DNA of 63,158 nt, the filler included, from Dirinaria sp. TL-2023a (taxonomy: Eukaryota), in the NCBI GenBank assembly GCA_051941275.1. It is 2 parts of 2 records of this genome, joined end to end, with 100 filler letters (N's around TTAATTAATTAA, not from the genome) between each part and the next. Parts side by side here need not be neighbours in the genome. Positions count along the whole stretch, not along the records: positions 31,655 to 63,158 come from JAVEBF010000092.1; 1 more part is not named here. One strand, 5' to 3'. The notes under the pieces are model-generated. The model did not search any database and was not told the origin of the DNA. It saw only the letters and a program-made list of their open reading frames with translations. The position numbers were made by a program, and so were the translations under genes. Positions 3,761-44,303 of this stretch are shown here, one piece after another; position 1 is the stretch's first letter; every line of letters starts with the position of its first letter.

Positions 3761-4497
3761 ATGCTGTTTTCTACGCTCATACTCGGGGCGCAACTCAGTG
3801 CAGTTGCCCTCGCACTACCTGCATCCCTCAATCACTCCACAACCCTCCCCAATATCAAAGGCCCCAACAGCAACGCCGACAACAGCGACCTCATGAGCTC
3901 GCTCTCCTCGCCCCAACAGCAAAAGACCGCATCGCGCTCATCCCCAACGACGCCGACTTCGTCTACGACTTCAACAACCCGCCCGGGGGCACCACGACAA
4001 CCGGCAAAGGTGGCCACACGGTGCGCGCCGACCGCGACGCATTCCCCGCTCTCGTCGGCACCGGAGTGAGCATGACGCTCGGCTTCCTCGGCCTCTGCGG
4101 CTTCAACACGCCGCACACGCATCCGCGCAGCTTCGAGATCAACGTTGTCGTTAAAGGCAGTCTGGTGGCCGAGTTCACGCTCGAGATCGGGGCGCGCACC
4201 ATCGGCAACCGGCTCGCGACGAACCAGATGACCGTCTTCCCCCAGGGAGCGCTTCATACCGAGTTCAACCCAGGATGCGACGATGCGCTGTTCGTGGCGG
4301 GCTTCGCCGGCGAGGATCCGGGCTTGCAGCAGGCCGCGCAGACGTTTTTTGCCTTGAATGATGATATTGTCGAGGCGGCGTTGGCGCATGATACGTTTGA
4401 CGGCGCGGATCTGGAGAAGTTCCGCAGTTTGATTCCCCCGAATGTGGCGCAGGGTGTGGAGAAGTGCTTGAGTCAGTGCCACATGAGTAAGAGGTAG
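3761..4497 (+). pseudogene. Secreted spherulin-1/germin-like cupin with a 1-nt frameshift near 3900 (pseudogene or sequencing error)
   Basis: The signal peptide MLFSTLILGAQLSAVALA (ATG 3761) is in one frame. The cupin motifs G.CGFNTPHTHPR..E and FPQGALHTEFN are in the frame of ORF 3586..4497. There is no intron signal at the switch. Confidence 0.8.
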
Positions 4498-4956
4498 GAC
4501 CTGGGACGAAGAGCCTCTGAATCAATTACGCGGCTCGAGCTGTGGCGATACTTCTACTGAAAAACGTTTTCTAGGACGAGCTTTTAATGTTGTTGCCAAT
4601 CCGAGGTGGATTTTTGACTTGCATTTGAAGCGTTTGGCGTGCTCATTGGATAGTGTGTTGCTTCTGCCGGGCATTGTAAATCTGGCCTGAATTTTCTTCT
4701 ATTCATTTTATATCAGGAACAAGCCTGCCGCTGGTGTGGCTGGCTTACGAAGGTCTTTTATCGGGACATTTTCAGACAGCACTACGTTCGAAAATCACCA
4801 CTCTTGTCCGCTTAAAATCGAGCGCACCTCCCTTACTCCTATCACAAAACATACAAATCAGTCGAGAGTAACAGCTTTGGGATACTATCTACCATCTCGC
4901 CACCTAGATACACTGGGTTGCATGAAGAGACAGAAGCGAGAATACGCCGACTACTA

Positions 4957-5602
4957 CTATTTACTAGTCGTGGTGCCGACCAGGTTGTCAATGACAAACG
5001 ACGTGAGGGTCGTAGGTGTCACGGTGAACACAACATTGACCAAATTAGTAAATTTACTCGAGAATTCCCCGAAAGAGAGCGGATTCATCAAATCAACCGC
5101 CTGCTGCGGTGTGAAGACGAACTCCTGTTTCGTTACCGGGGCCGATGAACCGGCTTTATACCCCGTCACGGTGACGTTGCAAGCTTTAGCCGTTGACGCG
5201 ACACCTTGCTTGGCCGACAGTACACAGCCGTAGTACCACGAGTGCAGCGCGAAGGATTTGGTTTTGGAGTTGGTATACTGCGATGATACGGAACGCGGAG
5301 TTCTACCCGAGAGGGCGACGTTGGGGTCGGAGTGTGGGATGACTCCGTCTGCAGATTGGTTGAGTAAAGCGGTATCGGCGACGTCGAAGCCCGTGTAGTT
5401 GAGACCCTTGTATACACCGACTGGGGTGAGAGTCCCCTTCGCGGGGATGGTGAACTCATCATCGTACTGTAGATGATGGGTCAGAAAAAACCGTCTATCT
5501 TGACATTTGAGGCCTTACGCTAGCATTGAACGCTGAAGTTGTGGCGGCGCATCGTGTGATCAAGAAGCCAAGGCAGAATATAGCGGCAGAGAGATGGAGC
5601 AT
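4957..5602 (-). CDS. Small secreted uncharacterised protein, 2 exons (5602-5519, 5466-4957), ~197 aa
   Basis: Signal peptide MLHLSAAIFCLGFLITRCAA and intron GTAAGG..CTGAC..CAG. The open second exon (YDDEFTIP...YKGLNYTGF...SWYYGC...CNVTVTGYK...FVIDNL) joins ORF 4957..5169. Appears beta-strand rich. Confidence 0.8.
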
Positions 5603-27961: not shown

Positions 27962-28199
27962 TCATTCGAGTCTTCTTTGTGGCGTGGTGCTCCGTCAATC
28001 TCTCTGGATTGCTCGTCTTGAGGCATACAGTTAGAGTTGCCTTGGGCTAGTGGCTTTTGGTAGCATCGAGGTCGCACTATATTCTTTTCACGAGCATTTG
28101 TGACATCGTGGGTTGTCTTATCGTCAGCGTGCCACTCGAGCTCTTGAGATCGAGACGTACGATCGAATCCTGACTGTGTCCCTAGGAGAGTTATCTGAT

Positions 28200-29350
28200 G
28201 ATAGTACGGCAAGTCGCTCGAATGCAATCAGTGAGCGTGACGAATGTCAAATGTGATGAGACTTCACAAACTGTGTACTACATCTCTCGAAACAGCACTG
28301 CTCCATGCAAAGCGCTTCAAACAAATCTTCTTCAGGATGTGACTTCAAAATTGACTGCCCGATTTCTCTGATCTTCAATTTTCTCGCATTGTTTGACAGC
28401 AAACATTCAGAATGCAGCATGCGCAAGGACTTGCAGGATCATGGTCTCATACAACTAATACTTCATCACTTGGAAACTGAATCTGAGAAGACGTGGTCGT
28501 CGAGAGAGAGCAGCATGCTGGAAAACGAGCGGTGAATGTCAGAGATATTGAGCTCGACGCTGTCGGGAAAACCATACTTCATCCCTTGAAACAGCATTGT
28601 TCGAATAGCGCACTCGAGAAGGAGTTCTCTGGCCGCTTTGGTACCAACATTATGCTTTACTCCGCCCGAAGATTCATCTTTTTCACACTGCCTGACAGCA
28701 AACGCTCAATCTGCAGAACGATGTTTCTACACCGTCAAATTCTTCGTAATTCGCAAAATGAATTACTCCTCGAGATGAATCAGGAAAGACGGAGTCTACG
28801 GAAGATGACACGTCTGAGACTTATCTTAATTCATTGATCAATCATTCGAGACGTACTGCATGCTTGATGGACAGATGAAGTGATTCTCCGCATAGAGAAG
28901 CTGGAACAAACTTCTTCAGAAGTCTTTCCTACTCGCTGAATTTCCGAGCTGTCTCAAAGTGTCGCAAAGATTGAAACACAACGAAAATTTTCTTTTCTTT
29001 TGAAACTTCTACATTCATTCACATCTTCAGCAGCACTGCATATCCGCACATCGAGTTCAAGTAGAGCAGTCTCGAGTTCAAACAGATCTGTCTCACCAAT
29101 GCAACGAAACGTCGTGGACAACAAACGACGTGAAAGTCGTTTGAGTTTCAGTGCGAGACGCGTAATCCAAGATCAGTGTGTCGAGTATCAGAATGATTTC
29201 TCGAAGGCTGCCTGAGTCTATAAAAGACTGCTCCGTCTCTCTCTCTTTCTCTTTCTCCAGTGCTTGTTCTTCAGAGCTTCGAGAAGCAGCTTTCTGTTGC
29301 GACTGTCATTATCAAATGAGGACAGAATGTGAGGATCAGCATTTTGAAAA
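28200..29350. other. CC/GG-depleted non-coding tract (mutated repeat relic?)
   Basis: 28950-29200 has very few GG/CC but many CG, TC and GA. No credible ORF. Confidence 0.5.
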
Positions 29351-29397
29351 GACATTCAGCTTAGTGGTATCCTGGACAGTACTCGGACGGACTCAGA

Positions 29398-31005
29398 ATG
29401 CCTCCTAAGGGCTCTGGCAGGGGTGGCAAGAAGGACGACAAGAAATGCCAGCCTGAACCTAGTGAAGAGCGCGAAGAACTGAGCCGATCAGTTTCGAAAC
29501 GGTCGCGGGACTATGCAGATCTTAAGGATCGGGCAGATCGTGGTGATCCTGAAGCCATTGAAAAATTAGAAAACCAACGTGCTAAAAGGGCCGAACTTAG
29601 TAGAAAATATAGGACCGATCCTGTAAACAGAGAAAAAATAAATGCTAATCAGCGGAAACACAATCAGGATGTACGAAAGGATGAAGGACTTCATGAAGAG
29701 AGGAAGGCGACTTCTAAGGAATGGAGGGATCATCAAAAGGAGCTGGTAGCCCGTGGTGATCCTGATGCCATTGCAAGGAAAAATAAAGACCTTGAAAGGT
29801 CACGAAAATGGACAAAGGATTTACAGGATGATCCCAAAAAGAGACAGAAAGACCTGAATAGGCAAAAAGAATATCGGAGAAGAAAAAGGAAGGCAAAGGA
29901 GGACGAGGAGAGAATGACACAGCTTGCAGAGGACCTAGATTTGGAGCTAGACGATCTTGGAGGATATTTGAGACAAGCGGAAGAAGGTTGGCGCCAAGAA
30001 GGGCATGACCCAATTGCATCACGCTCTCCACGAGACTCTCGACAACGCTCTCAACGAGGCACCCGACAATCTTCTCCTGTATCCCCTGGACTCCTATTGC
30101 CGGCGCAGCATCAAAACCGTGAGAGAAGTGTGCTCGTACCGGAAGACTATGAAACCCCCGCCGGGCAGTCACGAAGGCCGGAACATCAAGTTAGCTCTCA
30201 GAGATCGAAGCGGCGAGAGGATCTTCAAAAATGGGATCACAAGGCCGCCGTCGCCGCAATGTGGGCACAAGAGGAGCAAAGGAAAGCAGAAGAGAAGCAA
30301 AAGAAAGCTGAAGAGAAGCATGAAGAGAAGCATGGGAAAGCCGAAGAGAAGTGGAAGATAGAAGAAGAATGGAAGCAAAGGCAAGAGGAAGAACGGAAGC
30401 AAAGGGAAGTCGAAGACAAGCAATGGGAAGCCGAAGAGAAGGCGATGCAAAAAGCAATCAGAGATTCTCAAAGGCAAATCTCTTCTACCGGGCAGCACAA
30501 TCCATGGCCTGTTCCCCCTCACATACAAACCTCCAATCAACCATCGTACATGTCATCATATACCCGGCAAGCAGATCCTCCTTATCAGCCATATCGCTAT
30601 CAGCAACAAAGTCCCTTTCAATACCATGATCCCCAGCAATCACATCCCCAACAATCATATCCCCGGCAATCATATCCCCGGCAATCATATCCCCAGCAAT
30701 CATTAGCCCAGCAAGCATATCTCCAGTCATTATACCAGTATCCATCATATGAGGAGCAGCAAAGGAATCCTAATCTACAACCAAGTGCTTATCTACCGCA
30801 AGATCCTCCTCAACAAGCAAATGTCCCTATGCAATCTCATAATCCTGCTCAAACGGCCTTTGTTCAAGCAGCAAATGTTCCTTCACATGAGCAGTATCTC
30901 GGACTTCAGCCAGAGCGACCCTGTGAAGGAGGGCGCGGACGACAGCTGGAATCGGATAACGGGACACGAGGTGATTCCAGGAAAAGGGGAAAGAAAAAGA
31001 AGTAG
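29398..31005 (+). CDS. 535-aa intronless orphan with a highly charged coiled-coil N-half and a Q/P/Y/S-rich low-complexity C-half
   Basis: Long ORF with K/R/E-rich helices, two RGDP(E/D)AI motifs, (Q/R)QSYP repeats and a basic C-terminus RKRGKKKK (NLS-like). Confidence 0.75.
   Translation: MPPKGSGRGGKKDDKKCQPEPSEEREELSRSVSKRSRDYADLKDRADRGDPEAIEKLENQRAKRAELSRKYRTDPVNREKINANQRKHNQDVRKDEGLHEERKATSKEWRDHQKELVARGDPDAIARKNKDLERSRKWTKDLQDDPKKRQKDLNRQKEYRRRKRKAKEDEERMTQLAEDLDLELDDLGGYLRQAEEGWRQEGHDPIASRSPRDSRQRSQRGTRQSSPVSPGLLLPAQHQNRERSVLVPEDYETPAGQSRRPEHQVSSQRSKRREDLQKWDHKAAVAAMWAQEEQRKAEEKQKKAEEKHEEKHGKAEEKWKIEEEWKQRQEEERKQREVEDKQWEAEEKAMQKAIRDSQRQISSTGQHNPWPVPPHIQTSNQPSYMSSYTRQADPPYQPYRYQQQSPFQYHDPQQSHPQQSYPRQSYPRQSYPQQSLAQQAYLQSLYQYPSYEEQQRNPNLQPSAYLPQDPPQQANVPMQSHNPAQTAFVQAANVPSHEQYLGLQPERPCEGGRGRQLESDNGTRGDSRKRGKKKK
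30637..30735 (+). repeat. 15-bp coding minisatellite (CAATCATATCCCC(A/G)G), about 5-6 degenerate copies
   Basis: Encodes QQSHP-QQSYP-RQSYP-RQSYP-QQSLA-QQAYL. Confidence 0.85.
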
Positions 31006-31554
31006 CCACCCTTACACAGCATTTCGATCGCTGATGGCTATCTTCATCGATCAACACATGATTCAGCTATCGAACACGCTAACTATTCTCGGCATCCTAG
31101 TCACCAAGGCTCTCTTTTTCTACTTATTTCCTTTATATGTGCTAGGCAGACATAGACATTAACACTTAATCGTTAATAGTAATGGGCAGAGGTTACAAGA
31201 GGACGGCCGGTTTTAGATTCATGGGATAGATCTCTTTGAGTTCGGTTTCGAGCGTGTGCTGCAAGTTTCTGGGTTTCGGAGGACGGTGTAATGGGCGGAG
31301 GTTGAGAGTTACCAATTTAGATTTCTTTGATTTCGGTTTCGATTTTACATAGACAATTTAGATCTCTTTGCTTTTCAGAACGGTTCGGTGGATCGAGGTT
31401 GAGACTCAGTTTGATAGAGACATTAGACCCTAATAGATTTCTTTCATTCCTGAGATGGAGCATGTGCTGTTAATATATGGATTTTTGTGGGTGGTTTATA
31501 GTTAGAGGTCTCAAATGGTGTCTGAGTAAACCACGCTTTACTCGTAGCCACTCT

Positions 31555-31654
31555 NNNNNNNNNNNNNNNNNNNNNNNNNNNNNNNNNNNNNNNNNNNNTT
31601 AATTAATTAANNNNNNNNNNNNNNNNNNNNNNNNNNNNNNNNNNNNNNNNNNNN
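31555..31654. other. Assembly gap with an artificial linker (44 N + TTAATTAATTAA + 44 N)
   Basis: Exactly 100 nt and symmetric. TTAATTAATTAA places stop codons in all six frames, a common contig-joining spacer. Confidence 0.97.
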
Positions 31655-32823
31655 AAAAAAAAAAAAAAAAAGTCCGCATAACATTTCTCACTCTCAGAAA
31701 AAATCAAACATCCTGAAAACAAATATATAATCGCCTCTATTTCTTTCTCTTACCCGGCCCCTCTTCTATTTTGTAGAGTAGGTTTCGAAGATCGAAGAAT
31801 GGTGAATGAATGGAAGATTGAAAGGAAAAAAAAGGAGTGAGGGAACAAGACTGGGTTTTGAATTTTTGTGAGAGGAAGAGAGAAAAACTTTAAATGCTTA
31901 CGCGAGATGAGGATCACTGATCAGAGATGAATGTTGACTACAATCTGAGATTCTAATTATCTTCTATGATGATTCATGACAATAATGATGATGGGCTATT
32001 CGAAAGTTAAGAAGAAAGAGCTGGGTGGGAACGACAGTCGTAGTGGAAGATATGCTTCTAGGGGTAGGGCACGTGCTGTATCTATCGATTTTTTATATTC
32101 TAGAGGATGGAAATTGGGATGTCTTTATTTTCCCCCTTGTTTCTTAGTGCTTTGAGACCAGCTTCCCATGCGAGAGTCTGTATTCCTATCCCACGTCATA
32201 ATATCGCTCAGTAGAATAACTGGGGGTTTAAGCTCCCACTTTGATCCGTTCTGAAAAAAAAAAAAAAAGGGGGCGCTTGTTGCAGATATCAAAAATCTCC
32301 CGGTGGCGAATGCCTTTCCCAAAACGAATTGTTCATAAGATCAGCTTCGCGCTTTTAGGTAGAAAAATTGAAATTTTAGAATTGTTCCCGTGATCTAGGG
32401 TGAGGTATACTGGCCTAATCGATTGTGCGGCAGATTCGGTCTGCGCTATGCGGGTTTGGTACCCAGGTGGACGCGTTCCCAGCTTCTGCAGGCCCTGGCC
32501 CGGAGTCGGATGAGGGTCTGAAGTAAAGCTGTGCTAAGTCTCATAGGTTTTTGGGGAGTATTGATCAGAATGCGACGACCATGTGGATAAAGCTACATCA
32601 ACAGAACTTCCTGGCGCTCATGCAGCGTCTATATGATATCCGTTGCCAAGGAGGAATTTCAATAGCCGTTGTGTAAAGGCATGGGATGTGTCCAGCAGCG
32701 GTAACATTCCCGCACTCATACCCACATGCGCATCGACACGAGGCAGGTAAGGTACGCCTCCAGCCGTAGTATCGTGCTGGAGGCCGCTTCGTATGTCATG
32801 GTTCCGGTCACTGGATCCGCTGA

Positions 32824-34493
32824 CTAGAAGCAGAATCTTTCCCTCAGAGCTTTTCTGGACGCGAACAAGTCTTTTTGCGATCCGCGGATATAGCAGAGAT
32901 AGTAATACAGCAATGAAACGGCGATGCTCGAGGGCCCGATCAGAGCCCAGAAGATCCAGAAGTCGGTGGCTACGACGAGCTTCCTTTGGTCGGAGTCGAA
33001 ATTGAAGAACTGGCAGCCGAAGATTGCCTGCTTGATTGTGAGTAGGGAGACGCAGAGGGAGACGGATGCATGGGATCCATACAGCGATGGTTGCTAGAGG
33101 CAGGAACAGCACTGTGACGGTCGCGATCGCTCGCATGGACTTGCTGTCTTCGATCATCATCTGGCTGTCGTGTTGTGTGACTACGTTGAAGGCCTGGCGT
33201 TTCATTAATGGTCATTCCAATCCGTGCTGAAGAATGAGCCTACCAAGTTGATCATGTTCTGGACTCGCTTTTCTAGAGATTCCATGCGCAATGTCCAAAC
33301 ATCGGCCTGGATTACTTTCTGCGAAAGGACTTGGCTTGCCAAAGTCATCGCTTGAAGCGCATCCTGTCCTTCTTGAGGCGGGTGTTTTAGGAGCTCACTG
33401 TGGAACTCTTGGAGACGCGCAAGCATCGCGGCTGATCCCTGCGAGCTCTCTTTGAGATGGATGATGTGCTTTGCGATATTGTGCAGTCCCACAAAGTCGT
33501 GATGGGGCCGCTGGCCGCCGCCAGCATCAGCTGCCGTGGCGAGGGTGTCCTAATCAACGTTGGCTTTCTACTCGCTTCCATCCGATCGAAGAGAGCTCAC
33601 TGTTTCTACGACTCCAAAGGTCTCTCGCACATTGTTGTAGACTCCTTGGGCTTGCCGCCACAATTGGTCGAAACAGATAATGAGAAGACTGAAAGGGTCA
33701 CGGAGGACGTGCGTCAGGTCAGTGCTCCATAACCCTTCGAACCGCTCTCTCAGCTCCGGTGGCGCACTAAAGATGATAAGTGTGACCGTCGTCGAAGTGA
33801 AATCATCAGCGTTTGTCCATCTCAAAAACACGCTCGTACGGAACCAAGTCCAATCGCCTTGGCTCAGACCTACACCACGTGGATTGCGTGGATCAACAAT
33901 GTGCCTGGATTGTGCTGAAGCCGGGGAAAGGTTAATGTTCTTGCAGAGGTAGTGGAACCAGGCAGCTGGTCCTTCGAATCAGTTGACTGTTGGATAGTTT
34001 CAGGTGAGTTTAGGAAAGACTCACAGTAAGTGCCATCCTCAGAGGTTGCTCCGAACGAGTGAGTGACAGACTCCAATCGCTGTGAGACAAAATCGGACGG
34101 AATGGAAAGCTTTTCAAATAGAGCATGAATTCCAAGTGCTGTGCGCGGCTGCGGTACATCGAGGGGTGCAAAGCTATTAAGCAAGCTCAGCCGTCGTTCA
34201 AGTATTCCACAGATGGAGCGTCGATACCATACATTATACGAAATCGGTGACTCGGTACAGCGGTGAGATGATGAGCATTGGTTTGCACGATCGGATGCTG
34301 CCGACAGGGATCCCCTACGGCATTGTTAGATTTGTAAGACTTGTTCTTTCTGAATGTCAGCGACTGGCAATCTACCGGGCGACCACTCCAGCAAGCTAAC
34401 GGGACAAGTTTCAGGACCGTCAAGACGTCCTCTTCCACGCGCTCGTTGAAGGAACTCAGATCTGCTAGAACTATCTTGATAAAATTCTAACAT
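32824..34493 (-). CDS. Fungal CorA-like domain membrane protein, about 7 exons
   Basis: Spliced product MLEFYQD...IPSDFVSQRLESVTHSFG...WFHYLCKNI...DPFSLLII...LHNIAKHIIHL...LEKRVQNMINL-AFNVVTQHDSQMMIEDSKSMRAIATVTVLFLPLATIA-AIFGCQFF...FWIFWAL. The long stalk helix plus two C-terminal TM helices fits CorA-like proteins; the canonical GMN motif is replaced by GCQ. Confidence 0.8.
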
Positions 34494-36002
34494 GTTAATG
34501 ATAGCAATTGGAGCGAAACTCCGGTTGAATGAATGTTCGTGGCACCACTGCTTCCCTTTCCCCAGCTGTTGCAACTCTTAAGACAAGAAGGCTATCTCTT
34601 GAAGTGAGATTATTCAGCGCCGAGAGCTCCAGGCAAGAAATGGCCAATAAATCTGATTGCGCTAAAGATGAAAATGCTGATGATGGCGCTTCAGTCCCAA
34701 AGAACGACGCAACGATTCACCCAGCATATCCTGAACAATCTTTCGGCGCCGCATCCAGACGCTTTGTAAGCGCATAGCTCTGCTCAAACAAGCCATCACC
34801 ATTTGCCCAACACAGGTTAGTCCCTGGAGTCATAATAATAATTTCTCGCGCCTGTACCTTACGTACTTGAAGCATGTAAGGGGGCGCACTACGGAGCTAC
34901 AGCACGTTACGCATCTTTGTGGATTATGCAGGTAGCTGCAGCATCCTTGCAGATCTCCTCGTATTTCCCACTGTAACGGGGCGTAAAGGATGGACATCTT
35001 GCAGAAAGGCGAAAGCCATGTGGTTTGATGCAGGCCTTTTTTTTTGGTTTGTACGGAGATCGGTCCTTCAAAATGGCTTGGACCTTTCGATACATGTTCT
35101 TGGCAGACTTCTGGGAGCTTACTCCGATCTCCAATGACAGCGCGCCAATTTGTCGAGCTGCAGAGGAAGCGGAACAGCTGAGACCGCCTTCGGACCCAAA
35201 GAAGTAATCATGGCTTGGCTGCGTGTGTGTTAAGCTGTTAGCGTCTGTCAGCCTTGTCGGAATCGGGCCTGCATAATTCGCCAAGAGAGCTGGCTTGACC
35301 TAGTGAGCCAGAGGCACACCCGTGCTGAACAGGGGGAGATTCATGTGCCTGCGATTGCATCTATGCCACGCGAATCAGGTCTGCAAGGACCCGAACATTT
35401 ATCTGATATCTCATCAATCCTGAAGGATATCTCAAATTGGGTCGTGTCCAGTCCAACCTTTCGCATGCTGCTAAAAGCGACGATTCGAACGCACTTCCGG
35501 CCATCATTAGATGCCGTGTTTGAAGAGTATTTCGTCTGTCAAGGCGAGAACACCATGATTAAGGAAAGAGAACCAGACATGGGTGGTGTGGTGTGGACCC
35601 AGCCTGGTTCTGGATCTATCTTGTGTAACTGTGGCTCGAAAAGCGAAATCAGTGTGACTCAATGCTTCGATCTAACAATACACGTCTCGGCCGTACACTC
35701 GAACATAGCTCAGTAGTGCCGTGGTATATGTAACTCGACTGATCTGCTGCCTTTCTGTTGCTCCTGTCTCTGTTCAACCTGCTCTGAAGTACGACTTGGT
35801 CCCTCTCTTTAATTGCTTCGAACGTGCCTTGTGCATTCATCATTCGCTTTTCACCCAGTTTGGCGATTACTGAACAAAGCACCTTGCTCTTCCAAGCAGG
35901 CTGAGTGGTTTTAAGTTCTGAACAGAAGTTGCCATCTGCTATCTTCATTCTTAATCCCTTGTTCTTTCTCTGCCCATCTGAGATCGCCAATCAATTTCAC
36001 AA

Positions 36003-39000
36003 ATGGCGACGCCACAGATCATACCACCTGCTCACGGTGGTAGTATGGATCCAAACGAACCACGTTTTAGCCAAACACAGACGCACCAAAGCCCTTTCTC
36101 ATCAAGCGTCCCTCACACAGCTCAAAGCACACAGCCTCCAGATCATGGTGGCAACATGGACCCAAATGACTCTAGTCAAAGACAGACACAACCGCAGCCG
36201 TCTTCATATACCTTGCCTCAGACTGGGTCAGAGCCTCCGCGCGGTCAGCCAGACTATTTTGCGAGCTCACGGCCGTTAACCCAGAGGCAAGCGTCCGGCG
36301 AAGCTTTTCAGGCACAAGTGCAAAGCTCTGCCCAGTCAGGATACTCCAATTCACAACAGCAATCGTATGGAGTACAGACTGCACGGGGTTTTGCAGCTGA
36401 GCAAGCGCCACATGTGCCATCCGCTCAACCAGCGGTCTCCAGCCCGCAGTCGCAACAGTCGCCGCAAAGCCCACCGCAAGGGCAGTACTTCCCGTACCAA
36501 GGTAGCCCTCAGCCGTGGGCTTCTCGCAGTCCCCAGAGTCCCTATAGTCCCTCGTCCCCAAATTCGAGTGCGCCTCAAAGCCCAGGCTATGGCTACGCAA
36601 CCCAAGTAAGTCAGGAACCAGTATGGAGCTCACGTCAGAATATTACCAACACCACTCAGGCTCAAAGTCCACCACAAGGCTATGCCGCGTACCAGGCGCC
36701 CAGCAGTCCCTCGAAAGAGCAATCGCAAGCTTACACGGTAGGGCAACACCCACAGCCAAAAAGAAAGAAGTCGTCTTTGCGCAAATTTCATGAGTTTTTG
36801 ATGATGCAAGGGAGTAACGAGAAACGTAGGTAGAAAAGGGAGTCACTCCCTATACCACGAGAGAAAGGGGCTACGCAAACGTGCTGCACCATACATCGCA
36901 ATGGAGATGGAAATGGCCAAACACCTTTCAGAACCCGGGCGTTAGCCTCGGATACGGCAGCCATCGCCATCGAGATATCATGCAACGGTCAAAACTCTTT
37001 CCAGAGCATGACTACTACCTCTCACCAACAGACGGTCACCTCGAAAAGCTTGTTGTTCAATGTACACAGCCCATTACCGACACCAATCCCAACAGTACCT
37101 GGAGAAGAACTTTCATTCGCAACCGGAGCCCATATTTGCTGCAGGCTGCCAACTGGGTCTTACACTCGCTGCCTCAAGATGACAGAGAGATCGAGTCGGC
37201 AGATGTTCTCTTGATGGGCTTGAAGTGGTTTCCATCTTGTATGGCGATCCTTCTGCTGGTGAGTCTTTACCTTTTTCCTCAGCAACTCCATGATAAATTC
37301 CATTGACAGTCGCTAGATGATCTTTCCTGTCAATACTTCAGGAGAAGTACGCAATGGGGGTTACTACGATCCCTTTCCGTACCGATTCTGGGGCTACCCG
37401 CTCGATGCAAGGAACCTGAAAGAGGATGAGGCGGCAGCGGCCTTCCACTCCGCCTCGAGTGACAGGTCACCTACCAATGATGCAGTCGCACGCCGCTTGC
37501 GGCAGGCCGCCAAGAAGCAGCCAAATCCTGTTACAGAACGACCAATAGAGCCGAAGTATCTGTGCTTCCTCACCGGCTCGAAAGGCGTGAAGAGAGCAGT
37601 CGTCTCCGAATGGAAGCAGACACATGAAGAAGAGCTCACCTACGTCTTTGTATCATACACAGGCGAGCAATTCAAGACTCGCGAAGACATGCTGTTTCTT
37701 CACGAAATTGGCGAGCACGCCGCTCGAAAAGAGGGTGCATCGGCGTACTGGGTAGGCTGTTCGTGCTTAGGCGAAGAGAGTGAGGTGGAAGAGAACGTGA
37801 GATACATCAGCGACATTGTGCGAGGCTCTCAAAAGTTGGTCATTGTTGTACAGCATCCGTCAGGCAGTCAAACAACTAAACCAACAACCCAAAGCCTGCT
37901 GCACGAATGGGGACAACGTGTCTGGACGTTGCCCGAGATCCTTCTAACCACGAGCTCCAGCGACATTGCTATATATGCTCGCAATGGAGACATCGGGCAT
38001 CCAATGACCGTCAACAAGCGCAACTTTGCCTCAAAGTGGGCTGACGCCGCAGTGGCGAGGCAGCTCATCGACCATTATGAGGGCAGTCTAGTACTCAGCA
38101 ACCTAGAGCTTGTGACAATTGCTCTACAGTGCCTTCATAGCCGGCAAACATATACTCACTTTCGTGGTGACATGGCTAACGCCTTGATGGGCCTGCTGCG
38201 GAGAAGACCTGTTGTTACCAAGGCCGACTCAGCGTTCCAAGCTTTTGCTCGTCTTTCTCTCGCTAACGTCAATGATCTTCTACTCGAACGCCTCATCTGT
38301 GTCTTACCAAAGTCGCTCGACCAGCCTTGGTACGACATGGCAGACCAGTACGAAGCATCATTGTGGGACATATATCCTTCAACACAGATCTGCGGCATCG
38401 GAGAAAACGACACCGTGATACTGGATGGCGCATATGCGGCTTCAATCCGCTGGAAAGCATTTGCGCATGTTGCAAACCTTACCAAAGACAGCTGGAAACG
38501 CTTTTTCCTGCGCTACGCTTTCCGCTCGGCGTCCTGGCTTTTCATCGCGGGGATTGCCTTGATTTCCTCATCGGGCGGAAAAGGCCCTCTGACTGGCATT
38601 GGCGCAGTGTTCCTCGTCCTCTCTCTTTGCTTGCTACTGATATCGCCGTACCTTATCCGGGTACTTTACACCGGGAAGCTTTGGGCTACGCAGCCATGGT
38701 TCTTCGGTTTCGAAGGATACCTTGATATCTCGACCATCGAGCAAAAGATCTTCGGCGCCGACATGGGTCATCTCAAATGGAGCACGAACGGATCTCCGCT
38801 GTCGGTCCACGCGCCTAATGAGTTCGGCGAATGCATCGGACAAGACCCAACAAGCAACCCACAGACGAGAGAAAAAGTCGAGAGATCGATCAACTGCAGG
38901 ATGGGCGAGCCAAGAATATTTACCCTTGTTGACACGAACACTTTAACAGTTACGATGTTCGAGGCAGTCCGGCCACCTATCGCGGTGGTACTATGCGGGG

Positions 39001-39149
39001 AGGAAGGGGGCATGCAAAGAGCGTTACTCTGCTCCTACGACTGGCCTAATCAGACTCTGTACCGAGAATCGGTTCTGAGAATGGAGACACCGGTGTTGGA
39101 GAAAGTCAACAGAGTTGCAAGGCTTAGGCTTGGACTGAAAAGAGACTGA
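36003..39149 (+). CDS. Large membrane-anchored protein: Q/S/P-rich N-terminus, divergent HET-like domain and TM helices; irregular junction at ~36790-36830
   Basis: Formed from ORFs 36003..36833, 36881..37306 and 37317..39149, with probable introns 36606-36659 and 37259-37316. HET-like motifs YVFVSY, AYWVGCSCL, DIVRGS..LVIVV and WGQRVWTLPEILL. TM pair WLFIAGIALI / IGAVFLVLSLCLLLISPY. Confidence 0.75.
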
Positions 39150-40711
39150 TAGTGCCCTGGTAATTTCGATGAGGGGATCCTGTTTTTTTTTTTTTTTTTC
39201 GTTTCTTCTCTGGCGTCACGGCTGCTCATGTTAGGTGCTCTGTGTTGTACTAGCGTGGAATATTAATATGTAACCTGTCTACCTGTACAGTACCTTGTGT
39301 TGGTGGGTGGCCACCACCATGCCGGTTGTGGGGATGATTGATGCGCTAGTAATTAATGGAAGGTAAGGTATCTTACCTTAGTGACATAGTAGTAGCGAGA
39401 GTAACTTACGCTTAGGTCAGACGGCTCAGCAAAGAAGTTGAGCGTAGAATCTGATTGGTGCGCACGGAACAACTTCGGAAGTTTAACAAAACATCGGTCG
39501 AATCGCTCAGTACCAGTAGTACTCTGTAGTACCCTAACTTACACCTTCTTTGCACATCGCAATCGAAAGCGTGCGATATCGCTTTCTTAGTTGCATTCTC
39601 ATATCAACTACAACAACTCACCGTTGCACTACACATGCAGCTCCCACATTTAATGTCCTCCAATGCCGGTTCCTTTGATGCAAGATATTATTATCAGTCC
39701 AGTAACATTTCTACATTATGTACTACTGTTCTCCCCTCCAAGAATGATGATTGCGCAATCTGCTCTTCTTTTCTCCTAGGAGATGCTGCATCCGGATGGT
39801 CCAGCAAGACAGACATAGACTGCACCAATCGCTGGATGACGCATATATCGCGCAGATGGTCGTTGGCAATCGCCACGAAAACCCCACACCGAGCCGTTTC
39901 ATGTGAACTTGGCTAATGCATCAACAGTCGCCTATAGCCGCTACCAAAAGTCTAATGTACGCAGCAGCTACTATGACTTCGGAAAGGTGGAGGTGAACGT
40001 CACCTATCTCACTTTGGAAAAGCCCATGGCGAAAGCTTTGTTGGTGAAGTTGGCTAAGCAAGGCTTTCGGTAGTGCGTGCACTTCGCATCTGCTCCTATT
40101 ACGCTTTTCATTTGCAGCGGACGATGCAGGTACAAATACAAAGTGGTTCTCTGGACTGACCGCCTCGAGACCTCTGACAAAACTTCTGGTCAAGCCGAAT
40201 GTCCAGCTTGATGATCAGCCTTCTCTGATGTCGAACACAATGTGCCTTAGCCCTCGAAGGAAACATCGAACACTACCATAAGGTAGGACTAGAGACATCG
40301 TCTCGTGCATATACATTACCGTTCGCGTATCGACCAGCGTGACAGCGCAAGAGGCCGCATACTGGCGCCCCCGGTGCCGATGTCTACCACTCGGAAACCA
40401 CATCCCAACGATGTTGTTGCTAGCTTAGTATCTTACATTCACGATCTAAGGTTTCCCGGGTCTGTCCGTCCAGCCATCCGTCCCGTTTCGACCTACACGC
40501 GGGCCTCTTAGCTCTCTCGAATCCTGTCAATGATGTCGATCTACGTAGATTCACGGTCACTGGTGAATCCGGCTTTGAAAGGACTGCTGCCCATGCTCAG
40601 GGTTGCATGTACGTTTTTTACGCTTTATGGGGTCAGCTACTTTGGCAAGATAAGTATGCGCTGGTGGTCGCCTACCCTTCAACTCGGTTGCCTCGTTTGC
40701 AAGTCCAACAA

Positions 40712-42092
40712 ATGTCGTCCTTCTACTACCAGAGCCGCACGCCAGAATTGTATGGATCCACGATCACTTTGACGATTGTCGCCACCCTTGCGGTAGCCTT
40801 GCGGTTCGCATCGCGAAGGATATCCTCCGCACCCTATTGGTGGGACGATTGGGCTATTGTTGTTGCTTTGGTCAGTGCCCCTTCATAACTGGTCGGGTCT
40901 TAATCTTAGTCAGGTGTCTCGATGTGCTGACAAGCGCTCCAGATCCTCGATTATGGGCTCTATTCCTGCTATTGGCTTATGACCCGGAACTATGGCCTTG
41001 GCCATCATTCTGCACGAGTTGGAGGACCGGTTGACAAGCGTACCGAAGTGGGTTTCTTCAAGGTAGGCCTACGCCAGCTCGCGTGGACTTGGTGGGCAAC
41101 CTTTCCCGGCTAACAAGCGAGTCTCAAATCAGGTCTTTCTGGCCATTCAGATACTATACTTCAGCACTGCAGTATCGTTCAAAACCTCTCTCGTTTTACT
41201 ATATCACCGCATCTTCGGGGTCGTGCGCTGGTACAGGTGGGTTCTCGCGTTTGCGGAAAGTATTGTGGCATGCTACTTCGTCGTATGCCTATTCACGGCC
41301 ATTTTCGAATGCAAGCCCGTGTCATTTTACTGGGACAAGTCGGATCCGCATGGCACATGCATCAACCAGACCGCTTTCTACCGATGGAACGGCGTCGCGA
41401 ACATGTTCATTGATCTTTTCATCCTATGCCTCACATTTCCCATGGTATGGCGCTTGAAGATTGGAACTAGGCAAAAGATCACGTTAAGCGGGATTTTCTT
41501 ACTGGGTACATTGTAAGTTCTACGTGATCCCGCACACACACAATGAGCAAGCAAACGAGTGCCCTATTTTAGCCTCAGTTCTCTCGCTGACCCACTCATG
41601 CTCTGTTCGAACAGTGTCTTCGTCGCGTCCGTAGTAAGGGTGACGGTCTTCAGCCAACTCAAGCCCCAAGACGAGACTTATACCAATGTCGAACCGGCAA
41701 TATGGACCGTGGTGGAGCAAGGGCTAGGGATTACCTGCGCTTGCTTGCCCACGCTTCGCCCGCTGTTCGGCCGCTTGCTCTTCGGCACCACTCGCAATGC
41801 CGGCAGCAGTGGCACCACCCGGAGCGGTGACATTCATCTATCGAAGCGTAGCTACAGGCCATCGGTAACGCGGCCGGAAGATGAGGAGGCGATTGCGGTC
41901 TTTACGTCGCTGCCCGTGGAAAGCGTGCTTACAGGTGGCACAGTAACGACCAAGGCAACTGCTACATGTCCCGAAGAGCCCAGGAATCCGAGGACTGTGC
42001 CGCCAGAGGTAATCGTTAAAAGCCAGTCGATTGAGCAGCACTTCTCGCCTCCGCCGCCGATTAGCAAGTTCTCAGCAAGAGCGCAAATGTGA
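40712..42092 (+). CDS. PTH11-like (fungal rhodopsin-domain) 7-TM integral membrane protein, 4 exons
   Basis: VALRFASRR...WWDDW, YGLGHH, K.SLVLLYHRIF, CKPVSFYWD, DLFILCLTFP, W.VVEQGLGITCACLPTLRPL. Introns begin at 40871, 41063 and 41513. Confidence 0.92.
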
Positions 42093-42270
42093 CCTTGATC
42101 TGAATGACTTATTTTAGGAGAATGAGAGCTAAGTCTTCATGTCATGCTCGCTATAGAAGGTATAAACCTGTTATGCTGGAAATCGAAGCCTATGCCGCTC
42201 CTATATATATACAAGCCGCCTACTTGAGCAAGCTACGCCAATCATGCCATTCCGCACTCGAGTTCGTCTC

Positions 42271-44303
42271 TCATGACCCGGCATTGCCCAATATTCGGCT
42301 GGCGATCTTCTGCGCAAGTGCATATACGGTTGACTGAGGATGGCCCGGTGGGAGAAGCGGAAAGCTGCTCGCATCAACGACCCTCAATCGCTGTACCCCG
42401 TATACTCTCGCATCACTATCCAAGACCGCCAAGGGGTCGGTCTTCTTGCCCATCTTACAGGTCGCCGCCGCGTGCCAGATGGGCGTTACCATGGCGCGAA
42501 TGGCAGCGAGGATTTGAGCGTCGGTCTGTACCGAAGCGCTTGGATATGCCTCTGTTCCTATCGTTAGGTTGTAGCGCTCGAGCACGCTCCACAGTTCTCG
42601 CTGCCGCTTGAAGGCTGCAACGGCGAGCTCGACGTCCGCAGGATCAGTGAGCCAATTCGGGTTGATGAGGGGCGGGTCTTCCATGCTGGCGCTGTTGATG
42701 GTGACATTGCCTCGGCTCAACGGCGCGATCAAAGACGTCGCGATCGAAGCCCAATTGTATCCATCTTTTGGATCGGCCGTCTGATGATTCCCTTGCGTAC
42801 CGAGATAGCCACTTGCTGGAAGCCATTCCAGCTCTGGCCAGTCTGCTGGGAAACGGTTCAGTGCTTGCTGCGTTGCTGCTGTAAAATTGCGGCGGTACGA
42901 CTCCGGGAACTTCTCCCACCCAAATGCGGCACCAGTGGACATAGCCAGAGGCCCTGTATGTTGTTCTTGATAAAGCTGCATGGCTGCGGCAGCTGCACCT
43001 GGATCATTGCCCAATGCCGAGGTGGTGGGAACGTTGACCCTACGTCCAAGAGCCCAGAACGGTTGGTCCCATAGATTCTGACCAACACCGGGGAGATCTT
43101 TGAGGACCGGGATCTTGAGCCCCTCCAGCGTGTCTCGCGGACCGATACCGGAAACCATCAGCAGCTGTGGAGACTGGAAGGCACCGGCAGATACAATGAT
43201 TTCTTTCATAGCAGACAAAGTATAGGATTCGCTTCCGTTTGTGCTTACCCTGATACCGGTAGCGGTGTTACCTTTAAAGAGCAGCTTCTGCGCCATCGTA
43301 TGATGATACACAGCCAGAGTCGTATTTCGTGTCGCCATGGTCAAGAAACTGCTTTGCGAAGACGAACGCTGTGCTGTTCTGGGGTCGATGGTGAAGCTCA
43401 TGATGCTCGATCCGATCAATTGCCCTGCATTGAACCCATCAATATTCTTCATACCGCCCGCAAGGTACGATTTCTGCGACCAGGAATTGAAGGGGTCATT
43501 CGTTGTGTCATATGATACCTGCAACGGGCCGGCACTGTTGCTGCCAAAGGTTCCCGGTGGATCGGCAGTAGCTGTGATATTGTTGAAGATGGTGAGGTTG
43601 GGCGGAGTGTATGCAATGCCGTCCTGATAGAATGGGAGCATATTCTTAAAAGTGTAGCTCTCATCTCCGACTTCCGATGCCCATTGATCCATGGATTGAG
43701 ATGTCGGCCTGGCGCTCGCTAGTCAGCCATTCTCCGACGGATCACAAAATACATCTGGTGCAATTTCGTACCTATGATAAACGAGGTAATTCCGTGCAGA
43801 AGACCCTCCTAATGTCTTCCCCCTCGCATAGTGCATCCGGCGATCATTCGCACCCTGTGAAACAAGTTTCATCAGTCTGGAATTTTTCCTATGTACGAGG
43901 TACTTCGCTTTTTCTCTCTATACTTCTCGAATTCAGCAAAGCCCACGACAGGGAAACTCACAGCCTGCGGCACGGTGACAAATCCCCAATCAACTTTCGG
44001 ATTCGTATCATTCGGATACGTCCCCGAATACAGCGAACATTCGCCGGGGATCGCCAACTCCGGTACATCTTCCTCATAAAACCCCCCTGCCTCAATCACG
44101 GCCACGCTGACCTTCGGATTCTGTGCAAGCCGAGCGGCGAGGGTGCTGCCGGCTGTGCCACCGCCGACGATGATATAGTCATAGGTCGTAGTATTGCTCA
44201 GATCTGCTCTGCCCGGCACGGCTTTGAGTGGCGAGGCAGGCGATGCAATCGCCCCCGAGGCACATGAAACTAGGAGAGCCGCGATGGGTGTACGGGCATG
44301 CAT
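42271..44303 (-). CDS. Secreted GMC oxidoreductase (aryl-alcohol oxidase / PatE- or versicolorin-B-synthase-like type), 3 exons
   Basis: Signal peptide, YDYIIVGGGTAG, VIEAG, short exon YARGKTLGGSSARN, SAGAFQSPQLLMVSGIGP, WHAAATCKMG, LRVVDAS and PPGHPQSTVYALA (His/His active site). Confidence 0.95.

Follow-up and report, generated by a model that had tools for sequence, protein, structure and literature searches.

Two divergently transcribed genes in a stretch of DNA from Dirinaria sp. TL-2023a (63,158 nt with filler included, here termed the window; GenBank assembly GCA_051941275.1) form a conserved two-gene unit of filamentous ascomycetes. One encodes a 980 aa membrane-anchored protein, the predicted cytosolic part of which is supported, at levels below the thresholds of the methods used, as a remote member of the HET (TIR-like) superfamily that keeps the W-T-L-P-E block. 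The other encodes a 444 aa protein of the CorA family that lacks the GMN signature and has G-S/C/T-Q at the same position. Taken together, these features point to an undescribed two-part membrane module. We judge the chances to be evenly balanced that the products of this unit also act jointly, as a HET-like switch or signal maker and a CorA-like gated channel at one membrane.

A conserved divergent gene pair

The original prediction described two head-to-head genes sharing a spacer of about 1.5 kb. This arrangement is real, with the stop codons of the two genes forming its limits at 32824 and 39149, and the spacer is of the size claimed when measured from ATG to ATG. The open reading frame (ORF) at 37317-39149, previously taken for the whole of the second gene, also exists on the plus strand, but it is the last exon of a gene extending over 36003-39149. 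The layout of the locus is as follows.

32824-34493, minus strand: CorA-like gene, seven exons, 444 aa
34494-36002, no strand: intergenic spacer, 1,509 nt between the two start codons, from the gene models
36003-39149, plus strand: HET-like membrane protein gene, four exons, 980 aa

The spacer is presumed to be a bidirectional promoter. An ORF within it (35234-35713) has no Pfam match, and none of the spacer ORFs matches any of the 80 related loci described below.

Conservation of the arrangement was assessed in 80 metagenome loci, collected by scanning contigs with the family alignment of the HET-like protein and searched by tblastn with the spliced CorA-like protein. Of the 34 loci having at least 4 kb of upstream sequence, 29 have a CorA-like gene upstream in the opposite orientation, at 2.1-3.5 kb from the start of homology to the 610 aa encoded by the last exon; after dereplication at 95% nucleotide identity, this corresponds to pairing in 15 of 20 lineages. 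The pairing is still seen where the HET-like proteins are no more than 32-45% identical. In the 759,274 nt of these loci there was a single other CorA-like match, in locus L029, where it follows the HET-like gene in the same orientation (3854-5047, plus strand); its signature is GTN, and the contig has 1,342 nt upstream. As a control, ORFs of at least 70 aa from positions 18000-54000 of the window were compared with the same loci, and no other such ORF matched any of the 80. General synteny is lost and the pair alone persists. The DNA itself is too diverged for direct comparison, a blastn search of window positions 28000-44000 against locus L001 returning nothing at E 1e-10.

Beyond these loci, both proteins are on record in Aspergillus leporis and A. 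aurantiobrunneus, in each species from contigs of one and the same length (31,918 and 180,792 nt, respectively). A profile search with the HET-like family retrieved 1,032 representative clusters at E ≤ 1e-3, with source names including Lecanoromycetes, Aspergillus, Penicillium, Pseudogymnoascus, Cryomyces, Stemphylium, Phyllosticta, Diplodia, Fusarium, Colletotrichum, Clonostachys and Xylariaceae. Going by the names that the sources give, orthologs are present in at least five classes of Pezizomycotina.

The recurrent adjacency, together with the altered signature of the CorA-like protein, bears on the simplest account of the locus, namely that an ordinary Mg2+ transporter stands by chance next to an unrelated gene. 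The relationship to Pfam CorA is what this account has in its favour. However, it would have to accommodate pairing in 15 of 20 lineages that share no other synteny, as well as the absence of GMN from every copy read, and we regard it as extremely improbable, in agreement with the original prediction, which had set it aside.

Spliced RNA contigs of both genes were found in the same lichen sample; the RNA contigs used here come from this one metatranscriptome, are 90-99% alike to the window and leave 34512-36009 and some parts of the genes without cover. Among close relatives, dN/dS was 0.09-0.27 when computed on the HET-like gene's last exon and 0.12-0.50 on two exons of the CorA-like gene. 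When RNA was compared with the window over 38177-39105, 24 of the 34 differences listed fell at third codon positions, with 73 further differences unlisted. Both genes show the pattern of conserved, functional genes under purifying selection, which argues against a polymorphic or hypervariable het locus.

Such a locus would be of the classical allorecognition type, for which we take het-c/pin-c and het-6/un-24 to be the models, and in which polymorphic alleles of a HET gene and a linked partner trigger incompatibility. It would be in keeping with the HET-like domain and the tight linkage of the two genes, and a precedent of a kind is offered by mimpvic32, a CorA-domain gene that is one of the two candidate vegetative-incompatibility genes of Morchella importuna in the available text of PMC8940278. 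This gene (765 aa in the text of that paper and 773 aa in its Table 5, with eight introns, and polymorphic between strains) is, like the minus-strand gene of the window, a fungal CorA-domain gene, and one genetically associated with non-self rejection; no other link between incompatibility and a fungal gene with a CorA domain was found in the literature. By contrast with the pair, mimpvic32 is not adjacent to a HET gene in the available parts of PMC8940278. Further points against a classical het locus are the dN/dS ratios and third-position differences just given, and the one-to-one orthologs, which are 50-87% identical across lichens and beyond, whereas known het genes are characterized in the accessible portion of PMC12881547 as fast-evolving and patchy. 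Nor does the window contain an NLR or other het-type gene beside the pair. This explanation appears very unlikely.

The HET-like membrane protein

Gene models, RNA joints and a stop-free translation define four exons for the plus-strand gene. RNA contigs contain GT..AG joints at introns 36606-36659 and 37259-37316, and the remaining intron, 36738-36829, is inferred from the loose end of one RNA contig. This 92 nt intron also reads in frame, as KRKKSSLRKFHEFLMMQGSNEK, and a very similar peptide is coding in the Lecanora gene model P0026, so that 36738-36829 could represent alternative splicing or a mis-modelled exon. Taken as an ORF, the last exon encodes 610 aa. Full-length homologous gene models add to this a Q/P-rich N-terminus, a block with the motifs RHRD.M.R, YYLSP.DG and WRRTFIRN, and a hydrophobic helix, all of which are found upstream in the window; the resulting 980 aa model aligns with P0026 over 961 columns at 56.5% identity. 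The features of the gene are listed below, with ORF residues counted along the 610 aa of the last exon.

36003-36605, 36660-36737, 36830-37258 and 37317-39149, plus strand: exons of the HET-like gene
36003-36737, plus strand: Q/S/P/Y-rich low-complexity N-terminal region, from the translation
36830-37258, plus strand: conserved pre-membrane region (RHRDIMQR, YYLSP.DG, WRRTFIRN), with the first hydrophobic helix at its end and matches in 45 of the 80 loci
37617-38012, plus strand: putative HET/TIR-like alpha/beta core, ORF residues 101-232, from the domain model, fold searches and blocks
37641-37661, plus strand: HET block YVFVSYT, from the translation
From 37743, plus strand: HET block AYWVGCSC, from the translation
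37917-37937, plus strand: HET block RVWTLPE, from the translation
38511-38657, plus strand: hydrophobic helical hairpin, ORF residues 399-417 and 429-447, corresponding to helices 393-418 and 424-452 of the AF2 model
38679-39146, plus strand: conserved C-terminal beta-rich domain (WFFGFEGY, FTLVDT, CG.EGGMQRA..CSYDW), from invariant columns and AF2 strands of moderate to low pLDDT

The HET-like motifs named in the original prediction are all genuine and stand in canonical order. We take the consensus of the three HET blocks to be Y.alSY, WiDa.C and W..RgWtlQE; an alignment of 51 family members gives YxFVSYT, AFWIDxxC and WGxRxWTLPE, in which the second block is canonical. The description of the HET domain in the available text of PMC4986451 likewise includes three conserved blocks. 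Across 22 sequences, W203, T204, P206 and E207 are invariant; E207 is the candidate catalytic Glu.

Among relatives of the window protein, Pfam HET (PF06985; gathering cut-off 22.5 bits) was the sole recurrent weak family match. It was found below threshold in five of 22 relatives (best E 0.013) and, at 21.6-21.9 bits and so barely short of the cut-off, in four of 30 divergent members; the latter four matches begin at profile position 1, 3, 26 or 32 and reach position 142 of 146. When residues 75-390 were compared with the ESM Atlas, 29 of the 30 named neighbours carried HET, with a top score of 0.94. A search of PDB sequences with the family profile gave chance-level rows (E ≥ 0.89).

The AF2 model of the domain on its own scored well (pLDDT 92.9, pTM 0.90), and a Foldseek search with it placed the RUN1 plant TIR domain first (E 7.2e-3, TM 0.29/0.40). 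The corresponding search with the whole model also had a plant TIR domain first (E 4.4e-3); this whole-protein AF2 model is poor (pLDDT 61.5), and its VIA search was taken up by the transmembrane (TM) hairpin and is uninformative on the other domains. In the VIA search with the domain, Z reached at most 5.3 and the alignments covered model residues 27-158, with the SARM1 TIR domain at Z 5.0 (rmsd 4.0, 104 residues aligned); among the 50 matches listed were 18 TIR and four SEFIR domains and about nine nucleoside deoxyribosyltransferases. A remote relationship between HET and TIR is reported in the available text of PMC4986451 and PMC12881547, and the fold predictions agree with it. The comparison thus favoured a distant HET domain with TIR structures as its best matches, as had been expected, but the matches themselves are weak and lie under the thresholds of the tools and the family.

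The resemblance to known proteins is accordingly partial. In common with the fungal HET proteins (PF06985; HET-E, TOL, PIN-C and HET-6), the window family appears to have the three blocks in unchanged order and an alpha/beta core whose best matches are TIR-type structures, the core being followed by a helical stretch and then another C-terminal domain. Unlike them, it falls under the Pfam cut-off, has three hydrophobic helices and carries a long low-complexity N-terminus; and whereas those proteins are fast-evolving, present in high copy number and patchily distributed, this one is a conserved ortholog under purifying selection with a fixed CorA-like neighbour. With the TIR NADases and signal generators (SARM1, plant TIR domains and bacterial ThsB) it would share a flavodoxin-like core and, by a likeness that we assume, W-x-L-x-E with the invariant Glu. 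It differs from them in having no significant sequence match to solved TIR domains, the structural matches reaching only the Z of 5.3 and TM of 0.29-0.40 given above.

The TM helices claimed previously correspond to three hydrophobic helices. The first, with its Kyte-Doolittle peak at residues 354-372 of 980, ends the pre-membrane region and runs on into the next exon, and the other two make up the hairpin. Over 22 sequences, the mean number of K and R residues is 3.95 before the hairpin, 0.55 in its loop and 1.95 after it, a distribution that, by the positive-inside rule, would place the HET-like and C-terminal domains in the cytosol. No family was found for the C-terminal domain (residues 455-610) by Pfam to E 10, and its ESM Atlas scores were at most 0.78; DUF8212 is no more than a lead from the Atlas and was not among the Pfam matches at E 10.

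At the other end of the protein, the motif HGG[SN]MDPN[ED] occurs twice in the N-terminal exon (36033-36059 and 36144-36170). It is also present, in the form HGGN.DPN..R, one to three times in four lecanoromycete models, which make up four of the 282 family proteins examined and four of the 15 with a long N-terminus, and may represent a linear binding motif. Some records of the family carry doubtful annotation. Members are often labelled as 3-hydroxyisobutyrate dehydrogenase, as in P0322, P0333, P0200 and P0337; Pfam scans of family members, a set that did not include these four records, revealed no domain of this kind, and the label looks like a propagated mis-annotation. Two long members, P0136, with an MFS_1 match under the Pfam cut-off, and P0232, with part of a Zn2Cys6 transcription factor, are more likely to be gene models joined in error than true fusions.

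The CorA-like protein and its signature

The minus-strand gene consists of seven exons in a stop-free model.

34493-34376, 34314-34233, 34173-34025, 33965-33601, 33549-33244, 33193-33083 and 33027-32824, minus strand: exons of the CorA-like gene
33010-33018, minus strand: G-C-Q codons at the position of the CorA GMN signature, in the motif AIFGCQFFNF at the start of the last exon

RNA joints back four of the six introns (34174-34232, 33966-34024, 33194-33243 and 33028-33082). One RNA contig (X3 record 16, 33400-33586) enters the predicted intron 33550-33600 on the minus strand, leaving this intron unconfirmed; the overlap could reflect intron retention, RNA that had not been spliced or DNA carried into the library. 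Residues 1-421 of the protein align with residues 1-405 of the Aspergillus lentulus homolog P0122 at 38% identity, the N-terminal match setting 'RFRIIFAPLD' against 'LRIIFSPLD', and because this alignment runs from end to end the gene is considered intact. Exon 4 has 100% identity over 74% of its length to an NCBI hypothetical protein from a metagenome-assembled genome of a lichen fungus. The NCBI model of the gene itself, P0121, is 335 aa long and omits two and a half exons; by fusing exon 1 to the middle of exon 4, it loses around 110 residues of the N-terminal domain. The seven-exon, 444 aa model is preferred to P0121 on the strength of the RNA joints and the A. lentulus homolog.

The encoded protein comprises a soluble N-terminal domain with the motifs RIIFAPLD, SVTHSFG, WFHYLCKN and GDWTW, a coiled stalk and two C-terminal TM helices, with Kyte-Doolittle peaks at residues 362-380 and 400-418 of 444. 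Against the Pfam CorA profile (PF01544; gathering cut-off 27 bits), P0121 and P0123 scored below the cut-off at 17.3 and 21.3 bits, and the ortholog P0122 above it at 30.5 bits, in a match spanning profile positions 105-289 of 292. Precomputed PF01544 assignments exist for 35 of 47 orthologs, including AN5394 of A. nidulans. Judged by its sequence, the minus-strand product is a divergent CorA-family protein.

Canonical CorA Mg2+ function requires the GMN motif. Its absence from the window protein, which has IFGCQFF instead, was correctly noted in the original prediction and extends to the orthologs, GMN being found in none of the 25 neighbour copies in which the position could be read: 17 have GSQ, four GTQ, two STP, one GSE and one GTN. 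The CorA Mg2+/Co2+ channels (PF01544; Thermotoga maritima CorA) are alike in having a C-terminal domain of two TM helices after a long helix. The window orthogroup departs from them in having GSQ, GCQ, GTQ, GSE, STP or GTN in place of GMN, and in an N-terminal domain with no detectable similarity to that of solved CorA structures; when the family profile was run against PDB, T. maritima CorA was matched only over the first TM helix and signature region, at E 0.07-0.09.

Proposed joint action at one membrane and its alternatives

We propose that the HET-like and CorA-like proteins would act jointly at one membrane. The HET-like domain would serve as a switch or signal maker, working through nucleotide chemistry of the TIR type or by touching its partner directly. 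The CorA-like protein would be a pentameric gated channel, the opening of which would alter ion flux or membrane integrity. The closest working analogy may be the type III CRISPR system of Bacteroides fragilis, in which, according to the available text of PMC10600005, a divergent CorA protein is a ligand-gated effector, gated by SAM-AMP. There, as in the window, a divergent CorA membrane protein with its own N-terminal domain is genetically coupled to a partner, in that system a signal-making enzyme and here a putative one. That system differs in being bacterial, in having Cas10 and a degrading phosphodiesterase as partners and in having had its ligand binding demonstrated by experiment, whereas the partner here is a HET-like membrane protein and the pair is known from sequence; common descent between the two would be confined to the CorA superfamily.

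Direct contact between the proteins was modelled for the ortholog pair of locus L074, where the CorA-like protein is encoded by one open frame, using three chains and no alignments. The complex scored 0.36, against 0.01 for the best of three controls; the runs agreed on at least 30% of contacts, and partner pLDDT was at least 64. Of 78 solved complexes, 51 reached the same mark, as did two of 108 mismatched pairs; at scores of 0.60 or below, however, it was reached by only five of the 78 solved complexes and by all four of the mismatches that passed (of 180). The prediction lends weak support to binding, the odds of which it raises slightly.

Several observations weigh against the proposal. 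Five of the 20 lineages (L026, L070, L073, L075 and L080) have no CorA-like neighbour in the available flank, none being detected at E 1. In the tree of HET-like proteins, paired lineages occur throughout, with L026 and L070 nested inside their groups, a position suggestive of secondary loss of the neighbour in these two; L075 and L080 sit in a long-branch subfamily. The HET-like protein of the window has no Pfam HET match even at E 10, the Foldseek and VIA matches of its fold all fall short of E 1e-3 or Z 8, and the VIA output warns that a Z below 8 may mean a common arrangement only. That E207 corresponds to the catalytic Glu of TIR domains is our assumption from likeness to the WxLxE motif. 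The topology is ambiguous owing to the first hydrophobic helix: should it span the membrane, and should the long N-terminus be cytosolic, the HET-like domain would be turned towards the lumen or the outside. The score of the complex lies in a range that the tool rates as more often wrong than right in the absence of prior likelihood, and a shared promoter alone could be what keeps the genes adjacent.

If this last point held in full, the adjacency would stem solely from a bidirectional promoter or local chromatin, and the products would neither interact nor signal to one another. The head-to-head orientation and a spacer of about 1.5 kb are typical of co-regulated fungal gene pairs, and the weakness of the complex prediction is in line with such an account. 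Nevertheless, the arrangement outlives all other synteny, down to the lowest identities of the HET-like protein at which pairing was seen, and locus L029 keeps the pair tail to head, which a shared promoter would not explain. Co-regulation on its own therefore seems improbable.

A housekeeping role is also conceivable, with the pair belonging to a complex or pathway of, for example, organelle ion or metal homeostasis, in which the HET-like protein would be a non-catalytic scaffold or regulator without any role in death or immunity. The spread of orthologs over at least five classes, purifying selection on both genes and their transcription in an apparently ordinary lichen sample would all fit, as would the surroundings of the pair: the other genes of the window are ordinary, encoding a cupin, short-chain dehydrogenases, a fungal-rhodopsin-domain protein, a GMC oxidoreductase, an amino-acid permease, TAF8 and an SH3 protein, and they include no NLR. 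Such a role is harder to reconcile with the loss of GMN in 25 of 25 copies, given the dependence of canonical CorA function on it, and with a HET block whose Glu is invariant, which looks more like an active site than a scaffold. Moreover, cell-death induction is the only experimentally known role of HET in the available text of PMC12881547. Housekeeping is thus somewhat unlikely.

Three further features of the surroundings were noted. The gene for the fungal-rhodopsin-domain membrane protein (41067-42089, plus strand) and that for the GMC oxidoreductase (42274-43722, minus strand) lie downstream, and neither recurs in the related loci. An AT-rich stretch (31500-31999; GC 0.288 as against about 0.5 around it) is situated just 3' of the CorA-like gene.

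Joint action at one membrane leaves room for more than one biological role. The original prediction paired a signal-generating enzyme with a pore effector in an immune or cell-death module, a mechanism that we too treat as a candidate. In its most specific form the module would be an executioner common to the Pezizomycotina, in which a nucleotide-derived signal, made by the membrane-bound HET-like enzyme or relayed through HET-HET contact, opens a GMN-less CorA-like pentamer, leading to ion flux and regulated cell death; this is an unlikely version of joint action. Were it true, the pair would be a eukaryotic counterpart of the bacterial defence modules that combine a signal enzyme with a CorA or TM effector, and it might supply the missing downstream step for the fast-evolving HET-domain receptors.

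The literature search, in which supplementary tables were outside the scope, found no description of a HET-like/CorA-like pair and no paper on AN5393, AN5394 or AN5395 of A. nidulans. HET is the commonest cell-death domain in fungal non-self recognition, and we know of no downstream partner of HET domains. In the accessible portion of PMC12881547, the HET domain is reported to induce cell death on overexpression and its mode of action is listed as not determined. The HET-like protein described here is conserved rather than hypervariable, is membrane-anchored and has a fixed partner from a channel family, and so constitutes a tractable entry point. The occurrence of the pair in Aspergillus, with AN5394 as the CorA-like ortholog in A. 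nidulans, makes functional work feasible, and the pair would carry over to eukaryotes the bacterial pattern in which divergent CorA proteins lacking the Mg2+ signature act as gated effectors beside signal-making enzymes.

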